DNA of 64,000 nt from a virus (Duplodnaviria; Caudoviricetes): IMG/VR virus record IMGVR_UViG_2895532408_000002, positions 11,952 through 75,951 of that record. One strand, 5' to 3'. The notes beneath the pieces were generated by a model, which worked only from the letters and a program-made list of their open reading frames with translations, had not been told where the DNA came from and ran no database searches. This document shows, in pieces, positions 2,243 through 56,032 of this stretch; the stretch's first letter is position 1; each line of letters opens with the position of its first letter. Position numbers and translations under genes: made by a program.

Positions 2243-2682
2243 TACTTTGACTCGGGCTTCTTGTCATAAATATACCCGCCCTCCGAAAAGGACCCGCACA
2301 TTTTTGTAACAGTAGGGGGTATCTTCTCGTTCTGTGGGCCTTCGGGTTTATTTCTAACTACTACTTCAGGTGCGCTTTCTTCTGGCTTTTCAGAAGGGAT
2401 GGCTGGCTCATCAAAGAGCCTACCTAACTCGCCCATAACACGCTGTACGCCCCCCTCGTTATGTTTTGCTGCGAGGTAAGCGTCTTTGAGCGCAATAACT
2501 TGTTTAGGGTTAAGGTAGCCCAGCTTATACAACGCTTGATTAATACCCTCGTCTTGTAAGAAAACAATTTGCTTCGTTATATGATTGAATAACGATTCCT
2601 GTCTTGGGAACGCTACGGACTGTTCAATCACTTCATTATTGAACGCGGTCGTTACATTTATGTCTGGTTTATACTCTGGCAT
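2242..2682 (-). CDS. Hypothetical protein
   Basis: ORF track; ATG follows motif GGAGATTGACGATG. Confidence 0.75.
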   Translation of the reverse strand: MPEYKPDINVTTAFNNEVIEQSVAFPRQESLFNHITKQIVFLQDEGINQALYKLGYLNPKQVIALKDAYLAAKHNEGGVQRVMGELGRLFDEPAIPSEKPEESAPEVVVRNKPEGPQNEKIPPTVTKMCGSFSEGGYIYDKKPESK

Positions 2683-2693
2683 CGTCAATCTCC

Positions 2694-3584
2694 TTACACT
2701 TCATCAGCATCAAGGTTAAACGCCGCTTTAAGGTCCAGCGCTAACGATAGAAGTGCACTGGCCCCGAGATAAATTTCTGAATCAAGACGCGCTTCCTGTT
2801 GGTCCTTAGGAATATCGTCGCTTTCTTCAATCAAGCGGTCTGAGTACTTGATACGCTTAACAGAACCATCTTCACAAAGCATAGCGGTCAATTGGTCGTC
2901 ATAACTGACAGCAAGTTTCTGAACGAGCTTGCCTGAGTCTAGGCACAGTTGAATTTCTTCAGATGCAAGCTCTTGGTTCTTGGCTCGGATAACAGCCTTT
3001 GTATCATCCGTGGCTTGAAGCTCAGTCTCTTCGAGCAATTCGAACTTGTCAGGGTGGCCATTAACAAGCCAGCTTGTTAAGTCTGAAGCAAGAGAGCGTC
3101 TTGCGAATGGAACTACCGGTAAACTACCCAGCGCTTTACGAAGTACCGCAAGGAAGATTTCGGCCTCCCCATCTGAAGAGGCCTTCACGAACACAAGTTT
3201 ATGCTCTGGGATGATGGTGCCAATGGTTGAGGTTTGATCCGTGAAAGCACGCGGAGTTAGCTGGGCTACGATTTGCTCTTTCAAATCTGAGCGTTGCTTC
3301 TTGCCAACCGGTGAACCAGTTTCCGCTTCAATCAGCTTAACTTTTTCTTCTAACTCACGGTTGATAACACGGGCCGGTAGTATCTTGCTCTCTTTTAAAA
3401 GCTTAACCGTGTAAATACCTTGAACTTCGTGAGCCAGTAGCGAGCCAATAATAGGCGCAAAACCTAAAGAGGCCAGGGTATGTGAACCACAGGGGTGAAA
3501 GGGGATTGCCTCTAGCGCTGGGCCTAGGTTAGACAAGTCTACATTTTGAGTGAGTGAATAAATCTTTGCGTTTTTAAAATACAT
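2694..3584 (-). CDS. rdgC: Recombination-associated protein RdgC
   Basis: MYFKNAKIYSL start, KILPARVI, LTPRAFT, LRKALGSLPVVP, KLVQKLA; ~296 aa. Confidence 0.93.
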   Translation of the reverse strand: MYFKNAKIYSLTQNVDLSNLGPALEAIPFHPCGSHTLASLGFAPIIGSLLAHEVQGIYTVKLLKESKILPARVINRELEEKVKLIEAETGSPVGKKQRSDLKEQIVAQLTPRAFTDQTSTIGTIIPEHKLVFVKASSDGEAEIFLAVLRKALGSLPVVPFARRSLASDLTSWLVNGHPDKFELLEETELQATDDTKAVIRAKNQELASEEIQLCLDSGKLVQKLAVSYDDQLTAMLCEDGSVKRIKYSDRLIEESDDIPKDQQEARLDSEIYLGASALLSLALDLKAAFNLDADEV

Positions 3585-3593
3585 CGTCAATTT

Positions 3594-3796
3594 CCTGTTT
3601 TTAGTTAAGCTGGTAGTTGTTGTTTCATTTCTTCAACATCGGTCATAGCATCCCCACAACAATCTCTAAGGCATGGCTTCCAATGTCGTTCTGCGAATTC
3701 TTGAACAATCTCTAAGGCTTTCGCAACTTCCTCAAGAGACTCTTTAGTTTCCGTTGGCATCACCTATACCCTGTTTTTAGTTAAGCTGGTAGTTGT
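3594..3796. repeat. 27-bp direct repeat CCTGTTTTTAGTTAAGCTGGTAGTTGT (3594-3620 and 3770-3796)
   Basis: Exact match read from sequence. Confidence 0.9.
3605..3760 (-). CDS. 51-aa protein MPTETKESLEEVAKALEIVQEFAERHWKPCLRDCCGDAMTDVEEMKQQLPA
   Basis: Hand-translated; AGGTG just upstream; fills gap in operon. Confidence 0.7.
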   Translation of the reverse strand: MPTETKESLEEVAKALEIVQEFAERHWKPCLRDCCGDAMTDVEEMKQQLPA

Positions 3797-3990
3797 GGGC
3801 TGTACGTTGATACCTCACCTTCATACAGTCGCGCTATTTCGTTCCAGTTTTGTGTACCGTGTGAGCCCCTGGCCGGAAGCATCAAAATACGGTCTTCACA
3901 AACGTGACAGAAGCAAGCCCAGTTACTCGCGCCGCCAGCCCCACAATCAGGGCAGACGACACGGATCATCTTAAGTTCTGATATGTTCAT
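3781..3990 (-). CDS. Small Cys-rich (CPDC/CHVC) zinc-ribbon protein
   Basis: Likely start MNISELK inside the track ORF. Confidence 0.65.
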   Translation of the reverse strand: MNISELKMIRVVCPDCGAGGASNWACFCHVCEDRILMLPARGSHGTQNWNEIARLYEGEVSTYSPQLPA

Positions 3991-7017: not shown

Positions 7018-7079
7018 ATCGTCAATTTCCGAGAGTAAAAGGGCCGGACAAGCCGACCCTTATTAAGTTAATTAAAAGG

Positions 7080-13642: not shown

Positions 13643-13657
13643 CACAATTAGATTGTG
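13643..13657. promoter_or_regulatory. Putative operator CACAATTAGATTGTG (CACA-N7-TGTG family)
   Basis: Dyad; related copies at 30407, 33681, 33737, 53767. Confidence 0.65.
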
Positions 13658-13772: not shown

Positions 13773-14093
13773 GTGTCGAAAAAAATTGACGATAACTTAG
13801 AACCACCTTGGGAGCTAGAGAGGCGTCGTCTCATAGCTCGTAAATTTAAAACTATGCGTCAGAATTACCGTCTGACTCAAGAAGAACTAGCTATTGCTGC
13901 CGACGTTCACAAGAACACAATCTCAAATGCTGAACGTTACGGCAAAATTTCATCTGAAGAATTCTATAAATACCAGCAAATTGCGAAGCGTGCTCACATG
14001 AAAAAGGGTCTCGGTTCTGTTGTGAGTAAGATTACGCTATCCGACATACCATTCTCAGATTTTAAACGCTTTCTAGCGACCTTTTGGGAGTAA
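13773..14093 (+). CDS. XRE-family HTH transcriptional regulator
   Basis: RQNYRLTQEELAIAADVHKNTISNAERYG; GGAG RBS; divergent from replication operon. Confidence 0.88.
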   Translation: MSKKIDDNLEPPWELERRRLIARKFKTMRQNYRLTQEELAIAADVHKNTISNAERYGKISSEEFYKYQQIAKRAHMKKGLGSVVSKITLSDIPFSDFKRFLATFWE

Positions 14094-15164: not shown

Positions 15165-16003
15165 CTATAGCAGTATTGGTAGTTCTGTTGCCAGTTCGCG
15201 ACGTTTCAACAGCGGGACTTGGTTTTTTATCCAAGCTTTAATTTTTTCAATTCGACTCTCCGCCCGACTTTCTTTGTGTCTAGCTACAATGGCCAAAGCC
15301 TCAGATAACGCCCAACCTTCACCGTTAGGGCCAATATACCCCCAGCAAGATTCATCAATATCGTGACCTTCAATAACGTAACCATAGGCGTCACCCTCTA
15401 GATATGCCGCATATGTTTTTACTTCGCTGTCTAAGAATTCGTAGACCTTTTGAACACGTTCTTTTGTGAATCGATTAAAACCATACTCTTTACGGGCTTT
15501 ATCTTTGCTAACGTAGATAAAACCGACTTGGCCAGAATCCCAAGAGCACGAGAAACCACCCTATTCATCGTAATACCTGAATGGTCGTATAAGTAAAGCG
15601 GCAGGATAAAGTAGTATTTCTCAAGTCTTGCTGCAATCTTCGCCTCAACCAATTCTTGGTACGACTTCGTACCTTGAGCATCCCAACTTGTTGAAGGCCA
15701 GTTATGTTCGAATCTTTCCAACATAGCTTCAAACCCTGGCTCAACGGCCTCAACCATCCCAATACGATAGTCGTCGTAGCTTACTGAAGGTTGTTCATCC
15801 CCTAAGTTATATCTCCTATGCCAGCAGACCATTGTGCCTACGTTGTCCCACTCTCGAGGGCTTTCTATATCTCCATCCCGCTCAATCTTAATAGTGATAT
15901 CTTTTATCTGTGTCTCAGACTCACCAATCAAATCAAGGGCCTCAAAAGCTATTCCCAACTTCTGGCAGTTTGTTTTCAGTTGTTTTGTTAATTCAGGGTG
16001 CAT
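15165..16003 (-). pseudogene. Hypothetical protein (LYDHSG...WDSGQVG...SCWG) broken by a 1-nt frameshift near 15560
   Basis: After YDHSGITMNR the coding continues in another frame as GGFSCSWDSGQVGFIY...LPILL to stop 15165. Confidence 0.8.
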
Positions 16004-16062
16004 CGTCAATCTCCAACAAGTTAATTACAAAGGGGGGAGAACATTCCCCCCCTTTTTAAGGT

Positions 16063-16413
16063 TTAAATTTCGGTTTCGGGTTGGGCGTCGTACCAAGCCT
16101 CAACAACACGTAAACGAATCTCTTCGGGTATTTCTACCTTGTCCGCACAACTCGTTATATATGAGTCTGGTTTCATGTTTTCAGTGAACACGAACAGAGT
16201 AGACTTTAGAGAGTTCCTAGCCCTTGACGCGGCCCCCATATCTATATCGTTATCAATAAAGACAACTTGGGGGGCTATCTCGTTACGATGAGCTTCAATG
16301 AACTCTTTAAGGCTCGGGTTTCGCAAACTCATATAACCTCTTACGCAATGGCCTATGAAGGTCGCATTGATTTCTTCAAGTATTGCTTGTTTGTCTTGGT
16401 TACTAATTTGCAT
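16063..16413 (-). CDS. Hypothetical protein
   Basis: ORF track; conserved start motif. Confidence 0.75.
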   Translation of the reverse strand: MQISNQDKQAILEEINATFIGHCVRGYMSLRNPSLKEFIEAHRNEIAPQVVFIDNDIDMGAASRARNSLKSTLFVFTENMKPDSYITSCADKVEIPEEIRLRVVEAWYDAQPETEI

Positions 16414-16615: not shown

Positions 16616-17058
16616 TCGCTGTCCCATCCCCAATTACGCGCTTCAGGGCAAACTCGCTCGTTTGTTACTGCGCTGTCGGTATAATTACTGAACCACTCGG
16701 CTAAAGCCGTTTCATCCAGTTCGGCCAAGGTATCCCAGTTGTAGATGGTTGTGCTTTCCTGCTCAAGGTAGAAACCATTTTCTTTGATATACTCTTTGCA
16801 GTGTTCAATCCATTCGTCCCAGTCTGAAATCCAGTCCATTTCTTCGACATTAAGATACGCATTACCGAAAGGACGTCCGTTAATATCGTTGAAGGACTTT
16901 TGCCAAAACTCTTCGCTATCCCCGACGTTGCCCTCTAGTTCCGAAATTGTCTCTTTTAAAACACGAATAATCTCACTCTTCATCTTAGTCGTGTCGTCGG
17001 TGGCCTCTCCTGCGTGAGAGAGTGATAATTCAAAATCAAAATTACTAATACGGTTCAT
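16612..17058 (-). CDS. Acidic hypothetical protein
   Basis: ORF track; conserved start motif. Confidence 0.75.
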   Translation of the reverse strand: MNRISNFDFELSLSHAGEATDDTTKMKSEIIRVLKETISELEGNVGDSEEFWQKSFNDINGRPFGNAYLNVEEMDWISDWDEWIEHCKEYIKENGFYLEQESTTIYNWDTLAELDETALAEWFSNYTDSAVTNERVCPEARNWGWDSE

Positions 17059-17077
17059 CGTCAATTTCCTCAGTTAA

Positions 17078-27490: not shown

Positions 27491-27975
27491 TACTCTTCCC
27501 CTTCAGGTAAGGTTGCAAGGTAGGCCAAAACATCGTCTTGTAGAGCGAGAACGTTACGTATCTTCTGCTCGTTCGCTTCGATAAAGCCGGTTAAGTCGTT
27601 GGGTGTCTCCCCGCCAAAGTCCACGCGGCCATCACCCATACGGTCCTCGATGTTCAGTTGCTTGCAGTAGCGTTCGGCTTGCTCGTAGGTGGTGCAGTCT
27701 GGAACGTGGGTTTGATCTTCCGTACAGACGTCAAACAGCACGCGAGGTTTGATAAAGAAGGGGCCTTCATCACATTCGATTTTGTGATCTTTAACTTCAC
27801 CATGCACCACACCTGAGAATAACTGCTCACTTTCGTAGATTCGCTGGCACTCTTGCTTTAGGGCATTTATCGTTTGCCTAGCGTCCTCTAGTTTCTTTTG
27901 CAACGACTCTATAACGTCCACTAGTTCGTCATTACGGAAGTTTTTCAAATAGTTATTTCTGTCAATTTCACTCAT
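27490..27975 (-). CDS. Hypothetical protein
   Basis: Start MSEIDRN after motif. Confidence 0.7.
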   Translation of the reverse strand: MSEIDRNNYLKNFRNDELVDVIESLQKKLEDARQTINALKQECQRIYESEQLFSGVVHGEVKDHKIECDEGPFFIKPRVLFDVCTEDQTHVPDCTTYEQAERYCKQLNIEDRMGDGRVDFGGETPNDLTGFIEANEQKIRNVLALQDDVLAYLATLPEGEE

Positions 27976-28123
27976 CGTCAATTTCCTTAAAGTCACAATA
28001 AATTGGCCCTTCATCAGGAGCCATAAAGTCAATTTCTGGGTCGGTAGCAAACTCACAATGCTCAACCGATTTATACCCGTCACCTAGCATGGTGCCACCA
28101 CACTTTTTGCACACTTGGCGCAT
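27968..28123 (-). CDS. 51-aa Cys-rich protein MRQVCKKCGGTMLGDGY...KEIDDE
   Basis: Hand-translated; begins at GGAGATTGACGATG. Confidence 0.75.
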   Translation of the reverse strand: MRQVCKKCGGTMLGDGYKSVEHCEFATDPEIDFMAPDEGPIYCDFKEIDDE

Positions 28124-28163
28124 CGTCAATCTCCAAAAGAGGGGGGGAATGTTCCCACCCTAG

Positions 28164-36362: not shown

Positions 36363-36851
36363 TTACTCCTGATTAAGTACGAGTTTCATTTCGTCTATAA
36401 ACTCAGATTTTTGCTGCGGTGTTAGATAGCGCTCCATGCTATCGAGGATAAAGGTTTTGAATACACCAAATTGTTTTATACCTGAGGCGCGTTCTTGAAC
36501 GTCGAGGATTTTTTCCATTAATGACACCATGGTCCGAAAGGTACTGGTCATTTCACTGGTGTCGCTTTTATTCAGCGCGGTTTTGAAGCTTTTCATATCC
36601 CGATAAAGTTGTAACGCTTCGGTTTCAAAATCCGGTATGGAATCCAAATCCTCAATCTCTTGGGCTGCAACGGTCATGCCATCGTTGGAGTTGGGGCTAA
36701 ACAGTAGGGCGAGAAATTCTATCTCGTTGGGTTCGTAGGGACAGTCTTCATCCTCGAGGTAGGTGGGGTCGTCTTGGATAAGTTTTTTCCACGTATTCAG
36801 CGTTGTGAAAAGGTTCGGGGTGAACTCAGGATAGAATTTGGGTGTTTTCAT
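36363..36851 (-). CDS. Hypothetical protein (terminase small subunit candidate)
   Basis: Helical, adjacent to but divergent from terL; function is inference. Confidence 0.55.
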   Translation of the reverse strand: MKTPKFYPEFTPNLFTTLNTWKKLIQDDPTYLEDEDCPYEPNEIEFLALLFSPNSNDGMTVAAQEIEDLDSIPDFETEALQLYRDMKSFKTALNKSDTSEMTSTFRTMVSLMEKILDVQERASGIKQFGVFKTFILDSMERYLTPQQKSEFIDEMKLVLNQE

Positions 36852-36895
36852 CGTCAATCTCCGCATTGTTATAGGTTAAATATCATACCGCAAGA

Positions 36896-36924: not shown

Positions 36925-36963
36925 AGGCGAAAAATAGACTAATTGACGATAATTGGGGTAGCT

Positions 36964-38745: not shown

Positions 38746-38763
38746 CAATTTGGGAAATTGACG

Positions 38764-40224
38764 ATGGCCGGAACAATACTTAGCAAGCTCAAGGTAATTG
38801 TGCCTAATCGGTTTAAGCCGAAAGGGAGTACACAAACTGCGACCTATAACGCAGAAAACAATACGGAAGTCCTATCGCTCCCAGATTATCGGGAACACTT
38901 AGAAGATATTTATTCAAGTCGAGTTTCGGATAACTCACAAGAACTCATCATGAAGCTTGTTAAGTCCGATCCTGACGCTTCAGCAGCCCTAGGTGCGTAC
39001 TTAACCACTGCCGGAAGCGCTATCCCTTATATTGTTGTAAAAGACCCTGACGGAGCGATTGACCGCGACGGGGCCAAGATAGTCAATGAGCTTATTGAAG
39101 CCCTCGAGACCCGTCGGGATTATTCTAAAGGTTACTTAAGACCTAAAACGCTTCGAGAACTCTCCGAAGAGTTCCGCTATATGTTATTGGCCCGTGGCGG
39201 TATAGGGTGTGAAACCGTATTTGGGGACCAGCTTCAATTAACTGAGCTTCGTAATATTGATATGGCCAGTATTCGATGGCAAGAGAAAGAGCCAGGGAAA
39301 ATGGTACCTTGGCAAGACCAAGGCGGCGGGGACCCAATAAAGATGGATATCCCGTCGTTCTTCGTAGCGTGGTACCGAAAGTCACCTATAGAAGCCTATG
39401 GCCATAGCCCATTTGTTAGCGCAATTAATACCATGGCAGCAAGGCAACAGGTGATTAATGACTTGTATCGAATCATGCAAGTTACAGGGTTCCCGCGAAT
39501 CGCTATCAAGGTACTTGAAGAAGTCTTGGTGAAAAATGCCCCCGCGGATGTTAAGGCCGACGCACAAAAACTAAGAACCTATATTTCTCAACGCCGCCAA
39601 GAGATTGGAAGCGCGTTTGCTTCGCTGCGTCCAGACCAAGCGATGGTTCACACCGACAGTGCGGAAGTCTCAATGCTGAATGAAAAGAACCCTGCTACAG
39701 GGATTAAAATTCAGGAAGTGATTGATACGCTAAACGCGCAAAACCAAGCCGGTTTAAAGACGATGGCTACGGTATTAGGGAGAGGCGAATCAGGGGTGAA
39801 TACAGCTACGGTTGAAGCGAACTTATTTGCTAAAGCAGCGGATAGTTTGAATGAACCTATCGGAGAAATCCTCGGTAGTATGCTGACGATGGCCTTGCGT
39901 ATGCAGGGGTCAGAGAGTCGAGTTATTGTTAGGTTCCCGAATATTGATTTGCGCTCAGAGCTTGAGCTAGAGGCACAATTGAATTTGAAATCTAACCGCT
40001 TGCGCACGGACCTGAGTGATGGCTTGATAACAGACGATGATTATCATATCGCCATGTATCGTCGAATCCGTCCTGACGCTGTACCGGAGTTGAGCGGGAC
40101 TGGTTTTATTGGTGGCGCTATGGAAGTAGACGCTGAAAAAGTGAGCCCTAATTCTGACCCACAAGGACGCTCAGTTAGTCGCGCTTCAGACAAAAGTGCG
40201 AAGTCTAACGCTAACCAGTCTTAA
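38764..40224 (+). CDS. Portal protein
   Basis: Size and position after terL. Confidence 0.75.
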   Translation: MAGTILSKLKVIVPNRFKPKGSTQTATYNAENNTEVLSLPDYREHLEDIYSSRVSDNSQELIMKLVKSDPDASAALGAYLTTAGSAIPYIVVKDPDGAIDRDGAKIVNELIEALETRRDYSKGYLRPKTLRELSEEFRYMLLARGGIGCETVFGDQLQLTELRNIDMASIRWQEKEPGKMVPWQDQGGGDPIKMDIPSFFVAWYRKSPIEAYGHSPFVSAINTMAARQQVINDLYRIMQVTGFPRIAIKVLEEVLVKNAPADVKADAQKLRTYISQRRQEIGSAFASLRPDQAMVHTDSAEVSMLNEKNPATGIKIQEVIDTLNAQNQAGLKTMATVLGRGESGVNTATVEANLFAKAADSLNEPIGEILGSMLTMALRMQGSESRVIVRFPNIDLRSELELEAQLNLKSNRLRTDLSDGLITDDDYHIAMYRRIRPDAVPELSGTGFIGGAMEVDAEKVSPNSDPQGRSVSRASDKSAKSNANQS

Positions 40225-41870: not shown

Positions 41871-41912
41871 TTCGGAAGATTAGAACCAGAAATAAAAATT
41901 TGGAGATTGACG

Positions 41913-43118
41913 ATGCAAACAGCAAATCTTAGTCAGATTAAACGCGCCCCACTTGATGTGGTTCTGGCGGGTATCAATAGTGAACACAGCGACGATTCGA
42001 TTCGTGCCGGTGTTAAGCTGGTACAAGCAGCAAAACAATACGGTATTAACGTTCGTGACTACCTAAACTTAGCGGTTGACGTTCGTGCGTCAAACGATCC
42101 TGAAAAGGGTAAAAACTTCCGTTTAGAGAATGGTAACTTTATGACCGGCTATCAGGCCGCGATTGTTGAATTAAACCTACCGTTCAAAAACTCGTTTGAG
42201 CAAGGTATTACCCTTCAAGCGGCAGCGGACACCTTTAGTGCACGCCCAGGGTCTCGGGCACTTTTCCCAGAAGTTATCGATGATATGCTTCAGTGGAATA
42301 CGCGCCAAGATATGTTCGAGTCAACGGCCCCGATGGTCGCTCAGACTCGTACTATCACGGGTAACGAACTTATTACTACAGCCATTTTTGACGACCAAGG
42401 CCAGTTGAATACTTCGCCTATCGCTGAACTTGCGAACATTCCGATGCAGACTATCAAAAGCTCTGATAAGTCGGTTAAGTTCTTCAAGCATGGCTCAGGT
42501 ATCCGTACCTCATACGAATTCGAACGTCGTGTTAGCCTAGACATTCTTACGCCATATGCTGCTCGTATTGCGCGTAATAAAGAAATCAGCAAAGTGAAGA
42601 TGGCAACCTCGCTATTGATCAATGGTGATGGTGTTCACGAAGCGGCAGAAGTGGTAGCAGCTTCTAACTATAAAGATTGGGATGCGGCTAAAGGCCTTAA
42701 AGGTAACTATGTTGCCTTAGCGGACTTCTTGGCGCAACGTGCTCGTAAAGGCGTACCGGTTGATACTATCGTAGGTAACTACGATATGTGGCTAGAACTG
42801 TTCCTAATGTTCTTACCTACTCAACCTAACGGTAAGTCTACCTCTGAAATTCTTCAGGAGAACGGTGGTCCTCGCGTGGCTCTGGCCATGGACTTCTTAA
42901 GCGGTGTTAACTTCCATATTTCAAGCTCAGCCCCTTCAGGTAAGCTGATTTGTTATTCGAAGGCTGACACGCTGGAAGAACTTATCGAAGCGGGTTCTGT
43001 ACTGTCTGAGTCTGAGACAGCAATCAAGAACCAGTCGATTACTTACGTGAAAACTGAAAACTCAGGCTATCGCCTAGTTTACGGTGATACTCGCGTAATC
43101 TTCGATACTGCGGCCTAA
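41913..43118 (+). CDS. Major capsid protein
   Basis: ~400 aa, KHGSGIRTSYE, LLINGDG, followed by terminator. Confidence 0.85.
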   Translation: MQTANLSQIKRAPLDVVLAGINSEHSDDSIRAGVKLVQAAKQYGINVRDYLNLAVDVRASNDPEKGKNFRLENGNFMTGYQAAIVELNLPFKNSFEQGITLQAAADTFSARPGSRALFPEVIDDMLQWNTRQDMFESTAPMVAQTRTITGNELITTAIFDDQGQLNTSPIAELANIPMQTIKSSDKSVKFFKHGSGIRTSYEFERRVSLDILTPYAARIARNKEISKVKMATSLLINGDGVHEAAEVVAASNYKDWDAAKGLKGNYVALADFLAQRARKGVPVDTIVGNYDMWLELFLMFLPTQPNGKSTSEILQENGGPRVALAMDFLSGVNFHISSSAPSGKLICYSKADTLEELIEAGSVLSESETAIKNQSITYVKTENSGYRLVYGDTRVIFDTAA

Positions 43119-43125
43119 CCAAATA

Positions 43126-43147
43126 TAGCCCCCTTAAAAGGGGGCTA
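43126..43147 (+). terminator. Hairpin TAGCCCCC-TTAAAA-GGGGGCTA after MCP
   Basis: 8-bp stem. Confidence 0.65.
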
Positions 43148-43163
43148 ATTGGAGAACTTATCA

Positions 43164-43547
43164 ATGAAAAAGATACTCGCTGAAACCACTAAGTCTTTTA
43201 TGCTAATGACGCGTTTTGGAATTATTGAAGCGTTCCGCCCTTCGGTAATAGGCCATTGCACGGAAGTGGACCAGTTTGTTTCACAGCAGCAAGTAAAAGT
43301 GCTGGATAACGACTTGCCAGAAAACGCCACGGACGAAGAGTTCAAAAAGTTCTTAGACTCTCATGAGGGTGACTGGGAAACTGCACTGGAAAATTTCAAG
43401 CTAAGCCTTAAAGGTGTTGAAGAGACGGAAGAAGGGGATAAGGAAGACGCTGATAAGGAGACGGACGAAGGGGATAAGGAAGACTCACCAGAATCAGAAC
43501 CCGCACCAAAGAAAACTACGACTCGCACAACTAAAGCGAAGTCTTAA
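43164..43547 (+). CDS. Acidic hypothetical virion-region protein
   Basis: GGAG RBS; EGDKED repeated. Confidence 0.7.
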   Translation: MKKILAETTKSFMLMTRFGIIEAFRPSVIGHCTEVDQFVSQQQVKVLDNDLPENATDEEFKKFLDSHEGDWETALENFKLSLKGVEETEEGDKEDADKETDEGDKEDSPESEPAPKKTTTRTTKAKS

Positions 43548-43556
43548 GGAACAACA

Positions 43557-44243
43557 ATGTTAAGTGTCCCAAATAACGAAATGTTAATGCTGACAGAGTT
43601 TCAAATAGGTGACTACACCTATTTGCCGGACTTTGGGACCGTAAGTGTCTCCCTCAAGGACCATGAGGGCGTTGAGGTGCATTCAATGGATGTACCTTTT
43701 GATGCTGATTACAGCATCCCTCAAGATATCCTGAAAGTCAGCAGCAGTGATATCTTGAGCTTTTTTAAGTTGACGGTTAAGTTCACCAGTGAAAATCGCC
43801 AACGTATTTATACGGATATTGTTCGGGTTCATACGGATTTTATGTTTACATCCACACCCTCTAATCTAAGAAGCCTTATAGGGCTATACGAAGAAGAACT
43901 CCCTGATAGTGAGATTGATTTTATTTACTCGTTCAATGAGCTGGTAAATGAACTTGGCCAAGGCCTACTTGATGATACAAACGCTCGTATCAACAAGTTA
44001 ATTTTGCTACATGAAGCTGTGCGCCACCTTCCTGCGTTAGGACTGAAAACTCTAAAGTCTAATGAAATTGACGACACTAAGAAGTCTCGACTATCCAATG
44101 TTGATATAAAATCCGTGCAGGACTCTATTACATCCCAGTATTGGGCTCACAAATTAACGTTTGAGTCTGTGGATCAATTCCCGCAAGACCCAATCCTTGA
44201 ATTTGTGGCCCGAACTGACCCGTTCACAGGTGAAGACGCATGA
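43557..44243 (+). CDS. Probable head-tail adaptor
   Basis: Position. Confidence 0.55.
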   Translation: MLSVPNNEMLMLTEFQIGDYTYLPDFGTVSVSLKDHEGVEVHSMDVPFDADYSIPQDILKVSSSDILSFFKLTVKFTSENRQRIYTDIVRVHTDFMFTSTPSNLRSLIGLYEEELPDSEIDFIYSFNELVNELGQGLLDDTNARINKLILLHEAVRHLPALGLKTLKSNEIDDTKKSRLSNVDIKSVQDSITSQYWAHKLTFESVDQFPQDPILEFVARTDPFTGEDA

Positions 44244-44722
44244 ATATCTTTAGCTCGTATTATCGCGACAACCTTAAGCTGGTTGCGCGTACTACGAAGC
44301 CCAGTGAAAGTTTTCGAAGTCTGGTACCTGTTAGGGTTCTGGTTCATATACCAAAGCGCTTTAGGGTTAGGGCGGGGGATATTATTCGTAAAAATGAACA
44401 CACAGCGTTTCTACTGGCCGAACATCATGCTTACGGTTTAAATAACGTTTTTCTCGGTTTGTCTATTAACGCTGAAGCTGAGGTTATCTATTCTATTCGG
44501 GTCCGCCATCCTGTTACGGGGTTGGAGACCAATGGTTTTAGTACGGAAAGCGAAACCCTTCCCTGTGTTCAAGAAATAGAAACCCCGACGGAGGTAAAAG
44601 GCCTTACCGTCTCACAAGAGGTCTTTTACTTTGGCACTGAAATACCTAAGGACGCCAAAGTAAACGGACGAACGGTAACCAAGGTTACACCCGTTTCAGG
44701 GGTTTACCGCGTAGAGGTGTAG
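44240..44722 (+). CDS. Probable head closure protein
   Basis: Position, beta-rich. Confidence 0.5.
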   Translation: MNIFSSYYRDNLKLVARTTKPSESFRSLVPVRVLVHIPKRFRVRAGDIIRKNEHTAFLLAEHHAYGLNNVFLGLSINAEAEVIYSIRVRHPVTGLETNGFSTESETLPCVQEIETPTEVKGLTVSQEVFYFGTEIPKDAKVNGRTVTKVTPVSGVYRVEV

Positions 44723-44725
44723 GCA

Positions 44726-45634
44726 ATGTCGGTTACCGCGGATTTTCAAGCCCAGTTCGAAGCGCTCGTCACAGGCTTAACGGAAGGCGAAACCGCTTTC
44801 GTTAGAAGTGAAATAGAGTCGGCTACCGTATCCTTTCTGAATAATGTTTTCACTTCGTTAGCGGCCATGATCAGTGCTATGTCGAAGGAAGCCGAAGTCA
44901 TACAATACGCGCCTAATGCGTTTGGTTATGAAGGAACGAGTAAACGTATTACTTCACGCTGGCAAATTCGCAAAAATCTAGGCCTAGGTAAAAAGCCTTT
45001 AACTAAAGAGCCTATGTTGTTTCGAGGCCTTAGTGAGAAAAAGGGTAAAACTTCACTGGTTGAATTGCTTAAAAGATTAGGAAGCAATAACGACACCGGA
45101 GCAAAGCTTTATACTGGGCTTGGTGGACTATCGTTGTCTCCGGTGGCTACCGGAACCTCAGCTTTAAAGCCTGGGCTTAAATATTCCAAGTGGGCGGGTA
45201 AAGCTTATAACCCACGAACCCGAGAATATGTCGCTTGGAAAGATGCGGTTATTCCGGCAGTAAACCATTACTTGAGGCAAGGGGCTGTTAGAACTAGCAC
45301 AGGAACTACATTAGGCCCCAACGCGAGGGTCTCGGTTGAAGGAAGAAGAGGCCAGATATCAATACAGCGTGCCTTAGTTGAGGGCTTGGCCAGTGCGGGT
45401 ATCAACGTGAGTTTTTTATCTAAGCTCAACAGTTTTCTTGGAGCTAAGTCGGATTTCGATGATCTTGCAGACATACTCGAAACGTTAGGCTTAATTGACC
45501 AAAAAGAGAGAAATAAGATAGGTCACTTGCATAAATACAAGCACGCTATTTTATTACCCTACTTTGGCGCCTTACTGTCTAGCACAGGAAAAAATTCTTT
45601 AACCGCGTATCTAAAACGAGAAGGTGTCCTATAA
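44726..45634 (+). CDS. Probable neck / tail completion protein
   Basis: Position, basic. Confidence 0.5.
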   Translation: MSVTADFQAQFEALVTGLTEGETAFVRSEIESATVSFLNNVFTSLAAMISAMSKEAEVIQYAPNAFGYEGTSKRITSRWQIRKNLGLGKKPLTKEPMLFRGLSEKKGKTSLVELLKRLGSNNDTGAKLYTGLGGLSLSPVATGTSALKPGLKYSKWAGKAYNPRTREYVAWKDAVIPAVNHYLRQGAVRTSTGTTLGPNARVSVEGRRGQISIQRALVEGLASAGINVSFLSKLNSFLGAKSDFDDLADILETLGLIDQKERNKIGHLHKYKHAILLPYFGALLSSTGKNSLTAYLKREGVL

Positions 45635-46093
45635 ATGGCGCAGTATATTAATATCCAAGCCTCACTACTTCGGTTCTGCAGCGATAATGCCAAACTAATG
45701 CGTACTTTGGTGGGCACTGAATTTAAGAGCCTTAACCTCGATGCCTTTTCAAATGAAGATGATTTACCGGATGGGGACTTCATTGGTATAGAGGATTTAG
45801 CGGTACAGTCTTCTAGCGACGATACGCCTTTAGATACGCTTTCGGCAGCAGTAACGATTAGTACGGTATCCGACACTAACAATATGAGACTAACGAAAGT
45901 CGTAGATCATATTTTTGAATGCCTAAGGCCGAGTAAAGCTTTTACGTTATTTGATGAAAAAAATGGCGCGAGAAGGGGAAATATTACCTGTATGAATATG
46001 ACCCAAATACTCCCCGTTCAAGACGGAAAGAATTCTCGGGTTATCCAATCGATAATTTTTCAGGCTTCAGCTTTAGACGAATCAATAAAGTGA
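45635..46093 (+). CDS. Probable tail terminator
   Basis: Position before major tail protein. Confidence 0.5.
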   Translation: MAQYINIQASLLRFCSDNAKLMRTLVGTEFKSLNLDAFSNEDDLPDGDFIGIEDLAVQSSSDDTPLDTLSAAVTISTVSDTNNMRLTKVVDHIFECLRPSKAFTLFDEKNGARRGNITCMNMTQILPVQDGKNSRVIQSIIFQASALDESIK

Positions 46094-46401
46094 GTTAGTC
46101 CTAAGTCGCGCAAGCTGGCGCAAACAGCGATTTGAAAAGCTTGTTGACGAGTGTATAGTGTTCGTTGGCAGTACTGATCAAGACGATTCAAAACTTTTTT
46201 GGGTAGTCTTAAGGTAAAGCTTTTTGATGATGCCGACTTAGGAACAATACGCATATCGATTGGACTTAAGTTATTGTGTAAAAAGTGGTCTAATAAGACG
46301 CGCAACTTGTCCGCATCCGATTCACCCTCAATAGGGGCTTTAGATGCGGTCTCAAAAATGTTCGTGGGTGTGATGATTGAAATTGGTGTAAGTTTTGCCA
46401 T
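46060..46401 (-). CDS. Ribbon-helix-helix (Arc/CopG-like) DNA-binding protein
   Basis: SFTLRLPKKVLNRLDQYC; GGAGG RBS. Confidence 0.7.
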   Translation of the reverse strand: MAKLTPISIITPTNIFETASKAPIEGESDADKLRVLLDHFLHNNLSPIDMRIVPKSASSKSFTLRLPKKVLNRLDQYCQRTLYTRQQAFQIAVCASLRDLGLTHFIDSSKAEA

Positions 46402-46456
46402 GTTTCATCCTCCTTCAGCAAGGTATCAATAATAACCTAAAATTTGGAGATTGACG

Positions 46457-47287
46457 ATGGCTGGTGAAGCTAAAACAACTGATTTTATGTTGGGTACTGC
46501 CACTGTAATGATTGGTAACCCAGAAGACCTCTATAAACTTAACCCAGAAGAGCATTCTGTGGGCCTAGTTAAGAATTTCACAATCGAAGCAACAAAGGAA
46601 CGTTCAGACCTTACCCAAGGCCGAACTAACGATGTTGTCTTTACCCTAACAACAGGTGCCACAACTCGAGGCACATTCGAAATGTACGAATACACTGAAA
46701 AGAACCTTGCGTATGCTTTAGGTCTAGACGGTGGTGAACTTACTTCACCGGAAGGTGATGCTCATGTTGTAAAAACGGCGGCATCCTTTTCTTCGGGTAG
46801 TGTTAGCTTGGCATTAAATGACGGTACTGGTCAAAATATTGCCGTAGGTAGCTGGGTGAGTGTTCGTGACCCAATTTCTGAAAATATTGTTCTAGCTATG
46901 GTGACAAATGTGTCTGGAATAACTTCAGGAACCGCTACAGATGCAACAATCGAAGTTGAAGTCCCCGATTCAAATATGACTTGGGCTGTTCCGGCTGGCG
47001 CTTACGTATCTTTAGTAACGGTACTTGATGTTGGTTCAACGGATGTAGACCGTGACTTTGCCGCGAAGGTTCAGGGCCAGTTAGCTAATGGTAAGTGGAT
47101 CACACTTCTTATTCCTAAGATGCGCGTGTCTTCGGGTCTTACTATGGCGTTTGGTACTGATAACTTTGGCAACACGCCTTTCGAGTTTACACCTCTTAAA
47201 GTTACACCTTCAGATACTTACTATGCACCGTTCAAAGGTACCTCTGGTAAGTTGGTCCATGACTCAGTTACAAGTGCACTAGCGTAA
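46457..47287 (+). CDS. Major tail tube protein
   Basis: Position, followed by terminator and chaperone genes. Confidence 0.8.
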   Translation: MAGEAKTTDFMLGTATVMIGNPEDLYKLNPEEHSVGLVKNFTIEATKERSDLTQGRTNDVVFTLTTGATTRGTFEMYEYTEKNLAYALGLDGGELTSPEGDAHVVKTAASFSSGSVSLALNDGTGQNIAVGSWVSVRDPISENIVLAMVTNVSGITSGTATDATIEVEVPDSNMTWAVPAGAYVSLVTVLDVGSTDVDRDFAAKVQGQLANGKWITLLIPKMRVSSGLTMAFGTDNFGNTPFEFTPLKVTPSDTYYAPFKGTSGKLVHDSVTSALA

Positions 47288-47311
47288 ACTAGCGACGTTT
47301 AAAAACTGTTT

Positions 47312-47337
47312 AGAAGGCCTCTTCGGAGGCCTTTTTT
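47312..47337 (+). terminator. Terminator GAAGGCCTC-TTCG-GAGGCCTTTTTT
   Basis: UUCG tetraloop stem with U tract. Confidence 0.85.
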
Positions 47338-47350
47338 AAGGAAATTGACG

Positions 47351-47698
47351 ATGAGTGATAATCCCGCCACAAGATTTAATCTACGCGTTAATGATGAAGA
47401 TAAAGAAGTCTTTATGAGCTTTGCGCTATTAAACACTATCACGGGGTATTTCCGAAGCGCTGAAGAGCTAGACCAAATCCTATTAAACCCCGAAATTCGC
47501 AACAGCATCATTACGGAATTACTTTCTGAAAGAAATGAGAATGGTCGTATCACTAAGAACTTTGATACGACAAAAATGGTCGTTGACCACGATGAAGTTC
47601 TCGACTTGTTAGAATGGGTAGCGGAGCACGTTGAGAATTTTTTTATGAAGGCTCTCCAACGGGCCAAGCAAAGGATGAAAAAGAAGCAGACCATTTAG
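47351..47698 (+). CDS. Tail assembly chaperone (gpG-like)
   Basis: Position between tube and tape measure; slippery T7 run. Confidence 0.75.
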   Translation: MSDNPATRFNLRVNDEDKEVFMSFALLNTITGYFRSAEELDQILLNPEIRNSIITELLSERNENGRITKNFDTTKMVVDHDEVLDLLEWVAEHVENFFMKALQRAKQRMKKKQTI

Positions 47699-48009
47699 AG
47701 GTCTTCAACACTTGGTACCTAAAGCTGTCTTTCGAAGAACAGTTGTGCTTTGTTTTTGAGACCGTACCAAGTCAGCTTCAAAAGATATTTTGGTCCTACA
47801 GTAACCAAGATATAAAGGTTAAAACCAAGCTTATGCTTGGCTTAAAGACTGTCACAATGACTCAAGAGTATGTGACGTTATTAAATGCCGCTGGGACTAT
47901 CTTCGGGAAAAAAGAAAGTGGTTCAGGCACACCCAGACGCAAAACTACGAGCACGGTACCAAAAGATGAAATAGAAGCTGAGGCCCGAGCAAGAGCCGTT
48001 TTTGGGTAA
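47638..48009 (+). CDS. -1 frameshift extension of tail chaperone (gpGT-like)
   Basis: -1 frame open from 47635 to 48009; T-TTT-TTT at 47638-47644. Confidence 0.7.
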   Translation, partial: FFYEGSPTGQAKDEKEADHLEVFNTWYLKLSFEEQLCFVFETVPSQLQKIFWSYSNQDIKVKTKLMLGLKTVTMTQEYVTLLNAAGTIFGKKESGSGTPRRKTTSTVPKDEIEAEARARAVFG

Positions 48010-53727: not shown

Positions 53728-53764
53728 TTAATAAAATATTTATTAATTAATTTAAACAATATTA

Positions 53765-53793
53765 TTGACAATAAAATTGTGAGGCCGTAGTAT
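53765..53793 (+). promoter_or_regulatory. Sigma70 promoter TTGACA-17-TAGTAT with overlapping operator-like dyad (53767-53781)
   Basis: Consensus -35, AT-rich UP region 53728-53764. Confidence 0.8.
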
Positions 53794-53800
53794 TGCCCTC

Positions 53801-53878
53801 GGTTAGTAGTCCAAGTGGCTCCTAATTATCGTCAATTTCCAAATCAACGCCTCAGCCTTGCTGGGGTGTTCTGTTTTT
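53801..53878 (+). ncRNA. Candidate trans-acting sRNA antisense to the phage-wide start motif
   Basis: Promoter, seed CUCCUAAUUAUCGUCAAUUUCCAAAU, terminator AACGCCTCAGC-CTT-GCTGGGGTGTT-CTGTTTTT; 5' end inferred. Confidence 0.75.
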
Positions 53879-53947
53879 GGGCGATTGAAAAATATTCAAT
53901 CTATTCCTCTTTTCGGTATACTAGGCGAAAATTGAGGGAAATTGACG

Positions 53948-54436
53948 ATGAAAGAACTTTCACAAGAAATTCAGTCCCAACGTCACTCGCTGACTCCTGA
54001 AGACTTAACCACTTATCTAGAGCTTATTATTGAAGACCCTGACGGGCAACCGGTTATTATCCGCTTAACGGATAGGGAAACTCGCGACTGGAAAGACGTC
54101 ACTTGGGCTCACTCCCCGTTTAAAATATCAGGTATCGGTAACAAGTCTTCAGGTGAGAAAACCAGACCGAGCCTTTCGCTCCCTAACGAGGGGGGTATCT
54201 ACAGCTATTATCTAAATCAAGGGCTGTTAGAGGACGCCATTGTCACTCGATACAAAGCACTACCCCATGAAAAGGGCGGGTCGCTAACGTCCAAGCACGT
54301 TTTTTACGTTTCTCACGCCAGTAATATTAGTGCCTCTATTTTAACCCTTCAGTTAAGAAAGCTCTCCGACGGGAACAAAACCAAGTTTCCCCCTCGACGC
54401 TATGTGCAACCTGAATTTAGTACGGTAATTGTATGA
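53948..54436 (+). CDS. Minor tail protein (gpL-like)
   Basis: PFKISG...RPSLSL...A.VTR...FPPRR. Confidence 0.7.
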   Translation: MKELSQEIQSQRHSLTPEDLTTYLELIIEDPDGQPVIIRLTDRETRDWKDVTWAHSPFKISGIGNKSSGEKTRPSLSLPNEGGIYSYYLNQGLLEDAIVTRYKALPHEKGGSLTSKHVFYVSHASNISASILTLQLRKLSDGNKTKFPPRRYVQPEFSTVIV

Positions 54437-54930
54437 TTAAAGAACTCAATAGTTTTTGTGGCCACCACTACGAGCAAGGGATACAGGATTGCTATTCGTT
54501 GGTCAGGGATTTCTACAAGACCCGTTACCAGATTGAGATCACAAACTACGCGAGACCGGATAACTGGATACAAGACCCCAGTTTAGATTTCTTCACCAGT
54601 AAATTTGAAAAAGAAGGTTTCAAAGATACAAATAACAATCCTCACAAGGTTCGCTTTGGGGATGTGTTAATGATGCGTATTGCCGGTAGTCAAGTCGTTA
54701 ATCATGTGGCTATCTATGTGGGGAGACAAAAGATACTCCACCATTTACAGGGCCGCTTGAGTGAAATTGTTGATTACACTGATAAGTGGCGAATTAGGGT
54801 TGTCCGAGTGGTAAGACACCCCGAGGTTGAGAAAACCACGGAGGCCATGACGTTGCACAACCTTCATAAAGGCTTACCAATTCATCTTAGAGCCAAACTT
54901 AGAGGGGCCAAGAATGGGACAGTTGAGTAA
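54433..54930 (+). CDS. NlpC/P60 tail assembly protein (gpK C-domain)
   Basis: DCYSLVRDFY, NHVAIYVG, ILHH. Confidence 0.85.
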   Translation: MIKELNSFCGHHYEQGIQDCYSLVRDFYKTRYQIEITNYARPDNWIQDPSLDFFTSKFEKEGFKDTNNNPHKVRFGDVLMMRIAGSQVVNHVAIYVGRQKILHHLQGRLSEIVDYTDKWRIRVVRVVRHPEVEKTTEAMTLHNLHKGLPIHLRAKLRGAKNGTVE

Positions 54931-55249
54931 CTTTTGGAACGCGGAAAAAGAACGCTGTGGCTTTATTCTCAAGTCGGGAGAAGTTGTTGAAGTAGAAAAC
55001 ATTGCTGAATCCCCCGAAGAAGAATTTGAAGTCTCGGAGTCTGATTTTGAGAAGTATTACTCGGACACTGTTGCGTCATGGCATACACACACTAATGATT
55101 TTTCGAATCTTAGTTTGTCGGATTACTATACCTTTCTATCTCTCCCTGAGTGGGATCATTGGGTGGTTTCCCAGCATAAATCGGTAAAGTTTTCAGTCAA
55201 ATCGGAGTGTGTAATATTAGAAGAGGTAGTCCCACATGATAACGATTAA
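54914..55249 (+). CDS. JAB/MPN tail assembly protein (gpK N-domain)
   Basis: ERCGF, WHTH, LSLSD. Confidence 0.8.
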   Translation: MGQLSNFWNAEKERCGFILKSGEVVEVENIAESPEEEFEVSESDFEKYYSDTVASWHTHTNDFSNLSLSDYYTFLSLPEWDHWVVSQHKSVKFSVKSECVILEEVVPHDND

Positions 55250-56000
55250 GTTAGTAGGTTTTGGCAATAAAATAGCCAAGACTGTAAAGACCGCCGCGGC
55301 CAACTATAGAGAAGCGCTTGAAGCCCTAAAGTTACAGGAAGGGTTCAATCCGCTAACCGCTAAAGTACGTTATGTTTGTGAGGTTGACGGGGTAAATTCA
55401 ACGTTAGACTTAGACGAGCCGGTGCAAGATGGTGTTATGGTACTTCGTCGTAAACAAACCCTACAGACATTAAAAGGCTTTCAAGGTAGCGGAGGTTCTA
55501 ACGGTTGGGTTAAGGTTGTTGTCGGGATAGTGTTAATCACTGTAGCGGTGTTTCTTCCTCCCGTCGCGGTGGGTTTTACGGCTTTAGCTTCGGCGGGTAT
55601 GGTGAGTATAAATTTAGTATTAGCTCAAATTGGTTTTGCACTTATTGTAGGGGGGTTAGCCCAAGAACTAATGCCCACCCCCGAGAATGATAGTTCAGAA
55701 GAAAGCAGTAATAGTGCAACCTCGTATCCCAACACTGTACGTTCCGGCACACCCGTAGCTATGATCTTTGGCCGACACCGCTTTGGGGGCCACTTATTTC
55801 AATTTAATATAGAAAGTGTTGGACGTTCCTCGGCGGATATTAGAAACTTTACCAATGTTGTTTGGGATGAAGTTAGTGACAACAAGCGTGATTCTTGGTC
55901 TACTCTATTCTTCAATAGTGAATCCCAAGAAGTCGGCTCAAACACTTGGAGTCCTTGGGGTCGAGAAATCGACGGTATAAGACAAACACAAATTAATTAA
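55236..56000 (+). CDS. Tail assembly protein (gpI-like)
   Basis: Ubiquitin-like N-terminus, GSGG plus hydrophobic stretch, GTPVAMIFG. Confidence 0.75.
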   Translation: MITIKLVGFGNKIAKTVKTAAANYREALEALKLQEGFNPLTAKVRYVCEVDGVNSTLDLDEPVQDGVMVLRRKQTLQTLKGFQGSGGSNGWVKVVVGIVLITVAVFLPPVAVGFTALASAGMVSINLVLAQIGFALIVGGLAQELMPTPENDSSEESSNSATSYPNTVRSGTPVAMIFGRHRFGGHLFQFNIESVGRSSADIRNFTNVVWDEVSDNKRDSWSTLFFNSESQEVGSNTWSPWGREIDGIRQTQIN

Positions 56001-56032
56001 AATCTGGTTAAATTGACGATATTGGGGCTCTT

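Follow-up and report, generated by a model that had tools for sequence, protein, structure and literature searches.

The start-associated sequence (SAS) of Cluster K mycobacteriophages is a 13-bp asymmetric motif that includes a Shine-Dalgarno sequence and lies a few nucleotides from many start codons, mostly ATG (PMC3203893; papers given here by PMC number are drawn on in extract). Its role was still called unknown in the extracts of two later papers, one from 2024 (PMC11373665) and one from 2025 (PMC12699233). Here, we analyse a comparable motif in a temperate marine siphovirus represented by IMG/VR record IMGVR_UViG_2895532408_000002, a single contig of 75,951 bp (G000). Bases 11952-75951 of this contig form the window of 64,000 nucleotides to which our coordinates refer. 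We consider it likely that the motif is the target of a small RNA, encoded by the phage and acting in trans, which would mask ribosome-binding sites with the help of a FinO-type protein.

The resemblance to the SAS is close in form. In both cases an asymmetric motif of about 13 bp, containing a Shine-Dalgarno sequence, is found in a single orientation near many start codons. There is also one reverse copy in our genome (53828-53840, minus strand), and phage Anaya has 16 forward SAS and one reverse. The reverse SAS of Anaya is at positions 39871-39883 of locus L087 (59870-59882 of the record), in a non-coding gap of 385 nt between gp96 and gp97. A simple scan of this gap showed no clear promoter or terminator, and the extracts of the Adephagia paper mention no RNA at the reverse SAS copy. 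We take the Anaya parallel as a lead rather than a result. The differences are substantial. The consensus of the SAS is GGGATAGGAGCCC, and the sequence, the host phylum and the phage lineage all differ here. Cluster K phages have 11-19 copies, restricted to the non-structural right arm, whereas our phage has about 40, spread over both arms and including the portal, head, tape-measure and tail genes. Finally, no RNA partner was reported for the SAS, whereas here a unit made of promoter, seed and terminator co-varies with the motif.

Two bacterial systems resemble what we propose in their way of working. RocR of Legionella pneumophila is a 66-nt trans-acting RNA with a terminator hairpin, stabilised by the FinO-domain protein RocC, and it silences several mRNAs (comEA, comF, comEC, comM and radC) through a complementary sequence shared by their 5' regions (PMC6744872). 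A mobile element can supply an RNA mimicking RocR (sources on RocR and RocC: PMC6744872, PMC7973641, PMC9674577). Similarly, we find a short predicted RNA bearing a terminator, a shared target sequence and a FinO-family gene alongside, all known here from sequence alone. Yet RocR is chromosomal and has five host targets, whereas the RNA, its roughly 40 targets and the FinO-family gene would all lie on one phage genome, and there is no sequence relationship between the two RNAs (no Rfam match). In F-like plasmids, FinO helps the antisense RNA FinP to pair with the ribosome-binding site of traJ (PMC9977716). There, as in our candidate system, a mobile element encodes a FinO-family protein and an antisense RNA shutting down its own costly programme. 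FinP is cis-encoded and has traJ as its single target, whereas the RNA considered here would be trans-encoded and have dozens of targets carrying a short tag.

Phages also use small RNAs on themselves. STnc6030 of BTP1, sar/sas of P22, OOP of lambda and VpdS of VP882 repress phage mRNAs by pairing, and some phage small RNAs provide superinfection exclusion, escape from which maps to the paired bases (PMC12197685). Unlike the RNA that we propose, those covered in the extracts of this review have one or a few targets each, mostly in cis-antisense, and none reads a tag common to many genes of its own phage. We found no phage RNA aimed at a genome-wide start tag in the main texts of the papers searched, nor the string of the motif itself.

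The motif consists of a Shine-Dalgarno sequence GGA[A/G], followed by ATTGACG and then by ATG, i.e. 13-14 nt. Its core ATTGACGAT occurs 37 times in the window when 0.51 occurrences are expected (100 dinucleotide shuffles, maximum 3), and the 14-mer GGARATTGACGATR occurs 40 times with at most two mismatches when 1.39 are expected. The 34 copies that the first-pass annotation had placed at gene starts are all real and all among the 37 core matches. Yet 30 of them lie on an ATG, while the other four sit 12-16 nt upstream of the start (those of the terminase, of the gpJ-like tail gene and of two early genes), and three matches had been left out, at 13785 (plus strand), 33462 and 53828 (minus strand). 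The earlier claim that copies follow the coding orientation on both arms was borne out, with one full copy pointing against its arm. Among the 30 perfect 13-mers of the window (GGA[AG]ATTGACGAT), the seven on the plus strand are all at or beyond 38753, i.e. on the plus arm. Of the 23 on the minus strand, 22 are at or below 36862, on the minus arm, and one is at 53840. Over the whole 75,951-bp genome, 32 of 34 perfect 13-mers are on an ATG, the exceptions being an orphan copy and the sole copy opposed to its arm. We then surveyed the register of 45 sites, defined by at most two mismatches to the 13-mer or by the exact core. An ATG at -2, 0 or +1 from the end of the motif opens an open reading frame (ORF) of at least 51 aa at 33 of them; four lie 12-16 nt upstream of a separate Shine-Dalgarno sequence and start (10446, 26129, 36938, 56008), two are perfect copies without a start (33462, 53828), and six are weak intragenic matches.

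The copy at 53828-53840 (minus strand) is the only full one opposed to its arm, and it is embedded in a set of signals read from the plus strand:

53765..53793, plus strand: sigma-70-like promoter, TTGACA at 53765-53770, 17 nt, TAGTAT at 53788-53793 (10 of 12 matches)
53795..53881, plus strand: candidate trans-acting small RNA of about 80 nt (ends not mapped), with a 5' stem-loop, an unpaired anti-motif and a terminator
53821..53846, plus strand: seed, reverse-complementary to the extended start motif, with the 14-mer at 53827-53840
53846..53880, plus strand: intrinsic terminator, an 11-bp stem and then a T-run

The reverse copy thus lies 34 nt past a near-consensus promoter and stands directly before an 11-bp hairpin. 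In a scan of the plus strand from 46 to 57 kb, this promoter is the joint-best promoter-like site and this terminator the longest-stemmed terminator-like site, in a region where the total numbers of both kinds of sites are not above chance. The predicted fold of the RNA leaves the anti-motif unpaired (z = -3.06). Its seed stretch CUCCUAAUUAUCGUCAAUUUCCAAAU complements the extended motif AUUUGGAAAUUGACGAUA exactly. Of 40 start sites, 26 are perfectly complementary to the seed over the 13-mer, and the others differ mostly by changes compatible with wobble pairing. The 5' half of the seed (CUCCUAAUUAUCGUCAAU) can also form 17 bp with the displaced terminase copy, including two wobble pairs (counted by eye), covering the GGGG Shine-Dalgarno sequence of that gene, and it fits likewise at the gpJ-like and 26129 sites. 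When the 32-nt seed region was slid along the whole genome with RNAduplex, motif sites came out at the top, but the scan was too noisy to serve for statistics, since 319 sites reached -16 kcal/mol or lower, often by GC-rich pairing to the side. The first-pass annotation had proposed a regulon with a trans-acting partner, either protein or RNA; this fits the evidence, and a probable small RNA at ~53795-53881 (plus strand) can now be named as the partner. No Rfam family reaches its gathering score in the window, and 53740-53900 gives only chance-level matches (E at least 1). The predicted RNA would resemble RNAs of the RocR, FinP and c4 type in its way of working and is not a homologue of any curated family. 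A 61-aa ORF opening with GTG (53815-54000, plus strand) spans the RNA and its terminator; it lacks a Shine-Dalgarno sequence and is probably spurious.

We gathered relatives by searches with the large terminase (TerL), fetched whole records, and added the Pseudoalteromonas phage KB12-38. The latter is a cultured phage and the nearest named one by terminase (50% identity); the extracts of its literature do not mention small RNA, ribosome binding or ProQ. TerL identities to G000 are as follows:

98-99%: G006, G007, G008
89%: G001, G002
59-61%: G003, G009, G010
at most 49%: G004, G005

The last two are near-complete relatives without the start motif. In the TerL tree, (G000,G006) and (G001,G002) form one clade (support 100/100), (G003,G010) are grouped together (100/100), and G009 and KB12-38 branch outside, this being the tree of a single gene of mosaic genomes. 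Scans of metagenomes and of species genomes added few lineages (5 and 2 loci, respectively), and a megablast of window positions 36000-48000 against GenBank phages gave no close relative.

In six of nine records (G000, G006, G001, G002, G003 and G009), the RNA unit is flanked by homologues of the same pair of tail genes, and KB12-38 has it there too. All seven genomes have promoters of the same type 25-37 nt from the seed core (read by eye in KB12-38). Terminators are present in the relatives, where the sequences of the stems differ and the stems are kept. The seed core ATCGTC[A/G]ATTT is invariant in six of these genomes. In Achromobacter phage JWF (L090, 23099-23988) and Acinetobacter phage EAb13 (L091, 23527-24889), the genes flanking the slot of the RNA overlap, so that there is no room for the unit. 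Counts of 8-mers in 28-kb pieces of these two phages did not detect the motif, in a test that also missed it in pieces of equal size from G003 and KB12-38.

Seed and start motif change together. At the variable position of the seed core, genomes carry A or G, and their start sites carry T or C:

G000: seed A, start sites 36 T and 0 C
G006: seed A, start sites 35 T and 0 C
G003: seed A, start sites 23 T and 0 C
G010: seed A, start sites 9 T and 0 C
G001: seed G, start sites 18 T and 15 C
G002: seed G, start sites 14 T and 14 C
G009: seed G, start sites 1 T and 10 C

G007 and G008 have 42 and 43 motif matches, all of the T form. Further contigs follow the same rule. Those with a G seed have 1 C and 0 T (L077), 3 C and 1 T (L084) and 3 C and 1 T (L085); those with an A seed (L081, L054, L056, L057 and L059) have 5, 1, 1, 1 and 1 T and no C. 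Mixed T and C targets are thus found only alongside a G seed, as G-U wobble predicts, and the topology of the TerL tree implies that the G seed arose twice independently. In KB12-38, the seed is AUAUUGUCAAUCCAAAU and the start motif AUUUGGAUUGAYA; relative to G000, the RNA lost UU where the targets lost AA, and the RNA has U for C where the targets mostly have A for G. There are 37 GGATTGA sites in this phage against about 10.8 in mononucleotide shuffles, with 29 at starts and one reverse copy, and the position opposite the G of the RNA is C at 22, T at 6 and A at 1 of the 29 start sites. In lineage C (59-61% TerL identity), the seed extends beyond the start codon (CUCAUCG... and GAUCAUCG...), and the base after the ATG (+4) is A at 22/23, 6/8 and 7/10 sites; the corresponding figures in the A/B lineage are 10/27, 8/27, 8/24 and 8/18. 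In total, the seed has switched from A to G twice independently and between C and U once, in addition to a single 2-nt indel and a single register shift. A wider tally of variants is only suggestive of pairing: 111 of the variant cells are wobble-compatible against 77 others (n=188).

Matched changes of this type have a reported precedent. Citron and Schuster are said to have shown in 1990 that c4 of P1 and P7 (immI), an RNA made by the phage, pairs with short sites that are repeated and thereby represses genes of the phage. Matched changes of RNA and target between related phages reportedly set the specificity of immunity there, as we see matched changes between related phages here. The c4 RNA is said to have two target sites in one operon and to be processed from the transcript of that same operon. 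In contrast, the targets here are start sites genome-wide, and the window has no Rfam family at gathering score.

Could the anti-motif act only in cis? It would then be a leader or attenuator of the 162-aa tail gene that starts about 110 nt downstream, and the genome-wide motif would have some other cause. In every lineage, the anti-motif is indeed followed on its own strand by a motif-led gene, and in G001 and G002 the motif of this tail gene is of the C form, matching the G of the anti-motif. Yet a strong terminator stands in between (stems of 11-13 bp, and U8 in G003), followed by a promoter-like TTCAAT-16-TATACT before the tail gene, and some 40 identical start tags changing in step with the anti-motif would be left unexplained. 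We regard an action restricted to cis as quite unlikely.

The motif might instead be the site of a sequence-specific phage protein, either an RNA-binding regulator, possibly ProQ/FinO-like, or a DNA repressor, with the reverse copy as one more site. The stoperators of Cluster A mycobacteriophages would be a model for the second case. These are 13-bp asymmetric multi-copy sites whose orientation follows transcription. They are DNA sites of the immunity repressor, act on transcription, and are not described in a fixed register with start codons. They are mentioned in the very paper that described the SAS, which in its extracts left the choice between RNA and protein undecided for the latter (Pope et al. 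2011, PMC3203893). Our motif is also asymmetric, locked in orientation and multi-copy, and a ProQ/FinO gene co-occurs with it. From one lineage to another its copies, the reverse one among them, all change jointly, as they would with an altered protein specificity. Unlike stoperators, 33 of the 45 sites have an ATG at -2, 0 or +1, a register that a DNA operator does not need. Together with the transcribed position of the reverse copy, this fixed register argues for action at the level of RNA. The site of an RNA-binding protein would not be expected to have its complement within an oppositely transcribed unit in the same place of seven genomes, nor to show mixed T and C targets only where the reverse copy gives a G in the RNA. 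Besides, FinO-domain proteins are described as recognising terminator hairpins rather than linear motifs (PMC9977716, in extract). A protein site is therefore unlikely in our view, and the strand-specific promoter and terminator signals of seven genomes, the unpaired seed, the exact Shine-Dalgarno/ATG register and the wobble asymmetry favour pairing by an RNA.

A likely helper for the predicted RNA is encoded by the phage. G000 encodes a 168-aa protein of the ProQ/FinO family, 6,046-6,549 nt before the start of the window (PF04352, 46.1 bits for a cut-off of 27, E 5.4e-12). Searches with tblastn found the gene in four of nine records (G000, G006, G001 and G003), and found it neither in the motif-less G004 and G005 nor in three fragments. 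In KB12-38, a gene annotated PFAM-ProQ lies in the corresponding neighbourhood, making five motif-bearing genomes altogether. Proteins of the FinO family bind terminator hairpins, and phage-encoded homologues exist (PMC9977716). The phage protein is probably a chaperone of the candidate RNA, judging from this co-occurrence. At about 5907-5930 of L075 (minus strand), a displaced partial tag (AAATTGACGAG) ends 6 nt before the ATG of the ProQ/FinO gene, which may itself be a weak target of the RNA.

The window contains a minus arm encoding primase, helicase, ligase, RdgC, 5'-3' exonuclease, C5 methylase and a DUF3560 protein, and a plus arm, from about 36.9 kb on, which encodes the large terminase, the portal, the major head protein, the tape measure and a tail protein of gpJ-like type. 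The integrase gene stands at the start of the G000 contig, and no tRNA was found in the window. A 3-kb contig with a 99% identical terminase in a metagenome-assembled genome labelled Alteromonadaceae gives a weak hint on the host. The individual sites are the following:

2681..2693, minus strand: start motif, overlapped by the ATG, 146-aa gene
3583..3595, minus strand: start motif, RdgC-family gene, 296 aa
5577..5590, minus strand: variant GGAAATTGACTGATG with one inserted base, 172-aa gene
7018..7030, minus strand: start motif, 5'-3' exonuclease-like gene, 267 aa
8152..8164, minus strand: start motif, 357 aa
10446..10458, minus strand: displaced copy without GGA, 16 nt upstream of the ATG, 113 aa
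11151..11163, minus strand: start motif, 230 aa
13542..13554, minus strand: start motif, DNA ligase-like gene, 391 aa
16002..16014, minus strand: start motif, 190 aa
16412..16424, minus strand: start motif within the end of the upstream ORF (…EIDDAN*)
17057..17069, minus strand: start motif, 148 aa
18109..18121, minus strand: start motif, 100 aa
20363..20375, minus strand: start motif, DUF3560 protein, 461 aa
22882..22894, minus strand: start motif, 267 aa
23217..23229, minus strand: start motif, 92 aa
24371..24383, minus strand: start motif, C5 cytosine methylase, 299 aa
25880..25892, minus strand: start motif, 308 aa
26129..26141, minus strand: displaced copy, followed by AAGGAG and GTG, 62 aa
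27275..27287, minus strand: start motif within the end of the upstream ORF (…EIDDE*)
27974..27986, minus strand: start motif within the end of the upstream ORF (…EIDDE*)
28122..28134, minus strand: start motif, 51 aa
29305..29317, minus strand: variant …GACGAC, 162 aa
29873..29885, minus strand: variant TGAG…, 164 aa
30290..30302, minus strand: start motif, 128 aa
31185..31197, minus strand: start motif, 102 aa
31770..31782, minus strand: variant …TTGATGAT, C to T, wobble-compatible, 86 aa
31966..31978, minus strand: variant …TTGATGAT, 60 aa
33002..33014, minus strand: variant AAGGATTGACGAT, 239 aa
33462..33474, minus strand: perfect copy without start codon, in a non-coding unit (~33566 down to 33340)
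36850..36862, minus strand: start motif of the 162-aa gene that opens the minus arm
36938..36950, plus strand: displaced core ahead of the terminase start, with GGGG and, 13 nt further, GTG
38753..38765, plus strand: start motif, portal, 486 aa
40289..40301, plus strand: start motif, 388 aa
41902..41914, plus strand: start motif, major head protein, 401 aa
46446..46458, plus strand: start motif, 276 aa
47340..47352, plus strand: start motif, 115 aa
48018..48030, plus strand: start motif, tape measure, 1770 aa
53937..53949, plus strand: start motif, 162-aa tail gene just downstream of the small RNA
56008..56020, plus strand: displaced copy of the gpJ-like tail gene, whose GTG follows 12 nt downstream

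Much of what had been read from the letters at first sight holds in this list. The variants at 29305, 31770 and 31966 reappear in the register survey and that at 5577 is indeed GGAAATTGACTGATG. The motif is kept inside upstream coding sequence, three upstream ORFs ending in …EIDDAN*, …EIDDE* and …EIDDE*; TTG-ACG-ATG accounts for the false 'MTM' starts; and the DUF3560 and C5 methylase genes are motif-led, as the first-pass annotation had said.

Which genes carry the tag? With a crude gene caller, 38 of 83 genes do, and 36 of these 38 are more than 10 nt from the upstream gene, whereas 27 of the 45 other genes are within 10 nt of theirs. Since motif genes mostly stand apart in this way, the tag is a mark of cistrons that initiate independently, whereas translation of most untagged genes is probably coupled to that of a tagged one. 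One might then think of the motif as a ribosome-binding cassette or translational enhancer optimised by the phage and spread with gene cassettes, the reverse copy being incidental. It does hold a Shine-Dalgarno sequence and a start at canonical spacing, and heads independent cistrons. Moreover, spread by copying is plausible because early-region cassettes share a hairpin and AATTAACTT in addition to the motif. Yet the Shine-Dalgarno sequence is short, only GGAA in most copies (of 40 sites, 26 are perfect, and GGAG is found at 7), whereas genes without the motif have GGAG, GAGG or AGGAG. Such weakness would not be expected of a ribosome site that was merely optimised. Nor would an enhancer switch from T to C at 10 of 11 starts of G009, or drop two bases at all sites of KB12-38, in step with the reverse copy. 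We find this explanation very unlikely. The shared leader can be seen from 16002 to 33014 on the minus strand, where at many copies a hairpin of a G-run and a C-run (e.g. GGGGGGAATGTTCTCCCCCC) precedes AATTAACTT and then the motif, as in these examples:

16002, 18109, 20363, 22882, 25880, 28122 and 33002, minus strand: hairpin-led motif copies

This pattern is cassette-like and is present also in G001, G002 and G003.

The cassettes bear on two further ideas. The first-pass annotation had suggested from the plasmid-like genes carrying the motif that acquired genes are recruited into the regulon. This remained conjectural, and the distribution of forms in G001 (loci L044-L047) points to tags that move along with their cassettes and are not added later. 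Its structural arm has 7 C and 1 T, one of the C being at an internal Met, and its accessory cassettes at 30-46 kb have 1 C and 11 T (Fisher p = 8e-4, for a partition picked post hoc). The same split, together with the position of the motif at cassette boundaries of the mosaic early region, would fit a short homology linker at gene boundaries promoting the exchange of modules by recombination. But 13 nt is very short for homologous recombination, and the exact ATG register, the single transcribed reverse copy and the lineage-wide compensatory switches would be unaccounted for. A role as linker is thus barely credible.

Some elements near the motif and the RNA deserve mention on their own. The perfect copy at 33462-33474, which has no start, lies in a non-coding unit running from promoter to terminator (33340-33566, minus strand) that G006 shares (80% identity) and that G001 and G002 lack. 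This copy could be a gene start that has degenerated, or it could serve the small RNA as a sponge or decoy; as a conserved decoy forming a core part of the system it was ruled out by this distribution. Downstream of the unit (33180-33330, minus strand) is a run of short repeats resembling GGTTCTCGG / GGGTCTAGG, which could be iterons or an origin. The core at 13785-13793 (plus strand) forms codons 5-7 (K-I-D-D) of an Xre-like gene with a helix-turn-helix (HTH); this gene has its own Shine-Dalgarno sequence, the core is kept in G006, and some 13 nt near the start could pair with the small RNA. The sequence CTAGGCGAAAA is found at 36920-36935 and 53920-53932 (plus strand), just before the starts of the terminase and of the 162-aa tail gene, in the latter case after TATACT, and could be a regulatory element or a late promoter. 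Finally, dyads CACAAT-N3-ATTGTG occur at 13643-13657, 30407-30421, 33681-33695, 33737-33751 and 53767-53781, some of them close to the HTH gene or to the orphan unit and one within the promoter of the small RNA. We considered CACA-N7-TGTG dyads as operators linking the promoter of the RNA to early promoters and rejected this, as the 25 found with one mismatch compare with 18.45 expected, a count of 25 being attained in 10 of 100 shuffles. The operator-like dyad of the small-RNA promoter is not conserved and is missing from the promoter of G001. Hence, the timing of RNA expression cannot be deduced from the dyads.

How, then, would the system work? Many small RNAs repress translation by pairing at the Shine-Dalgarno sequence or start codon. 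We propose that the RNA is transcribed from the plus strand between the two tail genes, from about 53795 to 53881, and pairs in vivo over the Shine-Dalgarno sequence and start codon of some 38 genes out of about 83, which are for the most part the uncoupled cistrons heading each translational unit. The likeliest effect would be repression, rather than activation, through blocked 30S binding, with coupled downstream genes following suit, so that one RNA might throttle most of the lytic programme. It might do so in the lysogen, early in infection or during competition between phages. Candidate roles are a guard against leaky lytic expression, a threshold between lysis and lysogeny, and the silencing of incoming relatives. 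Several points weigh against this reading. Co-variation would also be expected for the sites of one sequence-specific protein, because the motif includes the reverse copy among its own copies. The wobble asymmetry of mixed targets rests on one lineage (B), and the tally of wobble-compatible variants is inflated by the G's of the Shine-Dalgarno sequence and by chance sites with three mismatches. The reverse copy of G010, a 17-kb fragment, has no clear promoter or terminator, and the terminator of G009 has a weak U-run. In addition, one RNA gene for about 40 targets raises a question of stoichiometry.

One might speculate further that tag and mirror RNA form a system of compatibility or immunity coded in RNA, in which one RNA, assisted by a FinO-type chaperone of the phage, would hold almost all of the lytic programme below a threshold and would silence incoming relatives with the same tag. 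We offer this tentatively, as a possibility that is rather doubtful at present. Lineages would then escape by joint changes of RNA and tags. A phage with a G seed would silence phages tagged with U or C, and a phage with an A seed only those tagged with U, i.e. dominance would be one-way, and wobble pairing would let U-tagged cassettes work in a G-seed genome. The SAS of Cluster K, with one reverse copy, might work on the same principle.

If the proposal of a small RNA reading the start motif is true, about 40% of the genes of this virus bear a private tag at the ribosome site and one small RNA controls all of them, which would be a simple, programmable and genome-wide translational switch. 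It would give a function to phage-encoded FinO/ProQ proteins, and it would be a natural case of one RNA co-evolving with dozens of targets, wobble pairs bridging the successive states. Since KB12-38 is cultured and has its own version of the system, the idea can be put to the test at the bench. It would also provide a concrete, testable answer to the purpose of start-associated sequences in phages, a question open since 2011.

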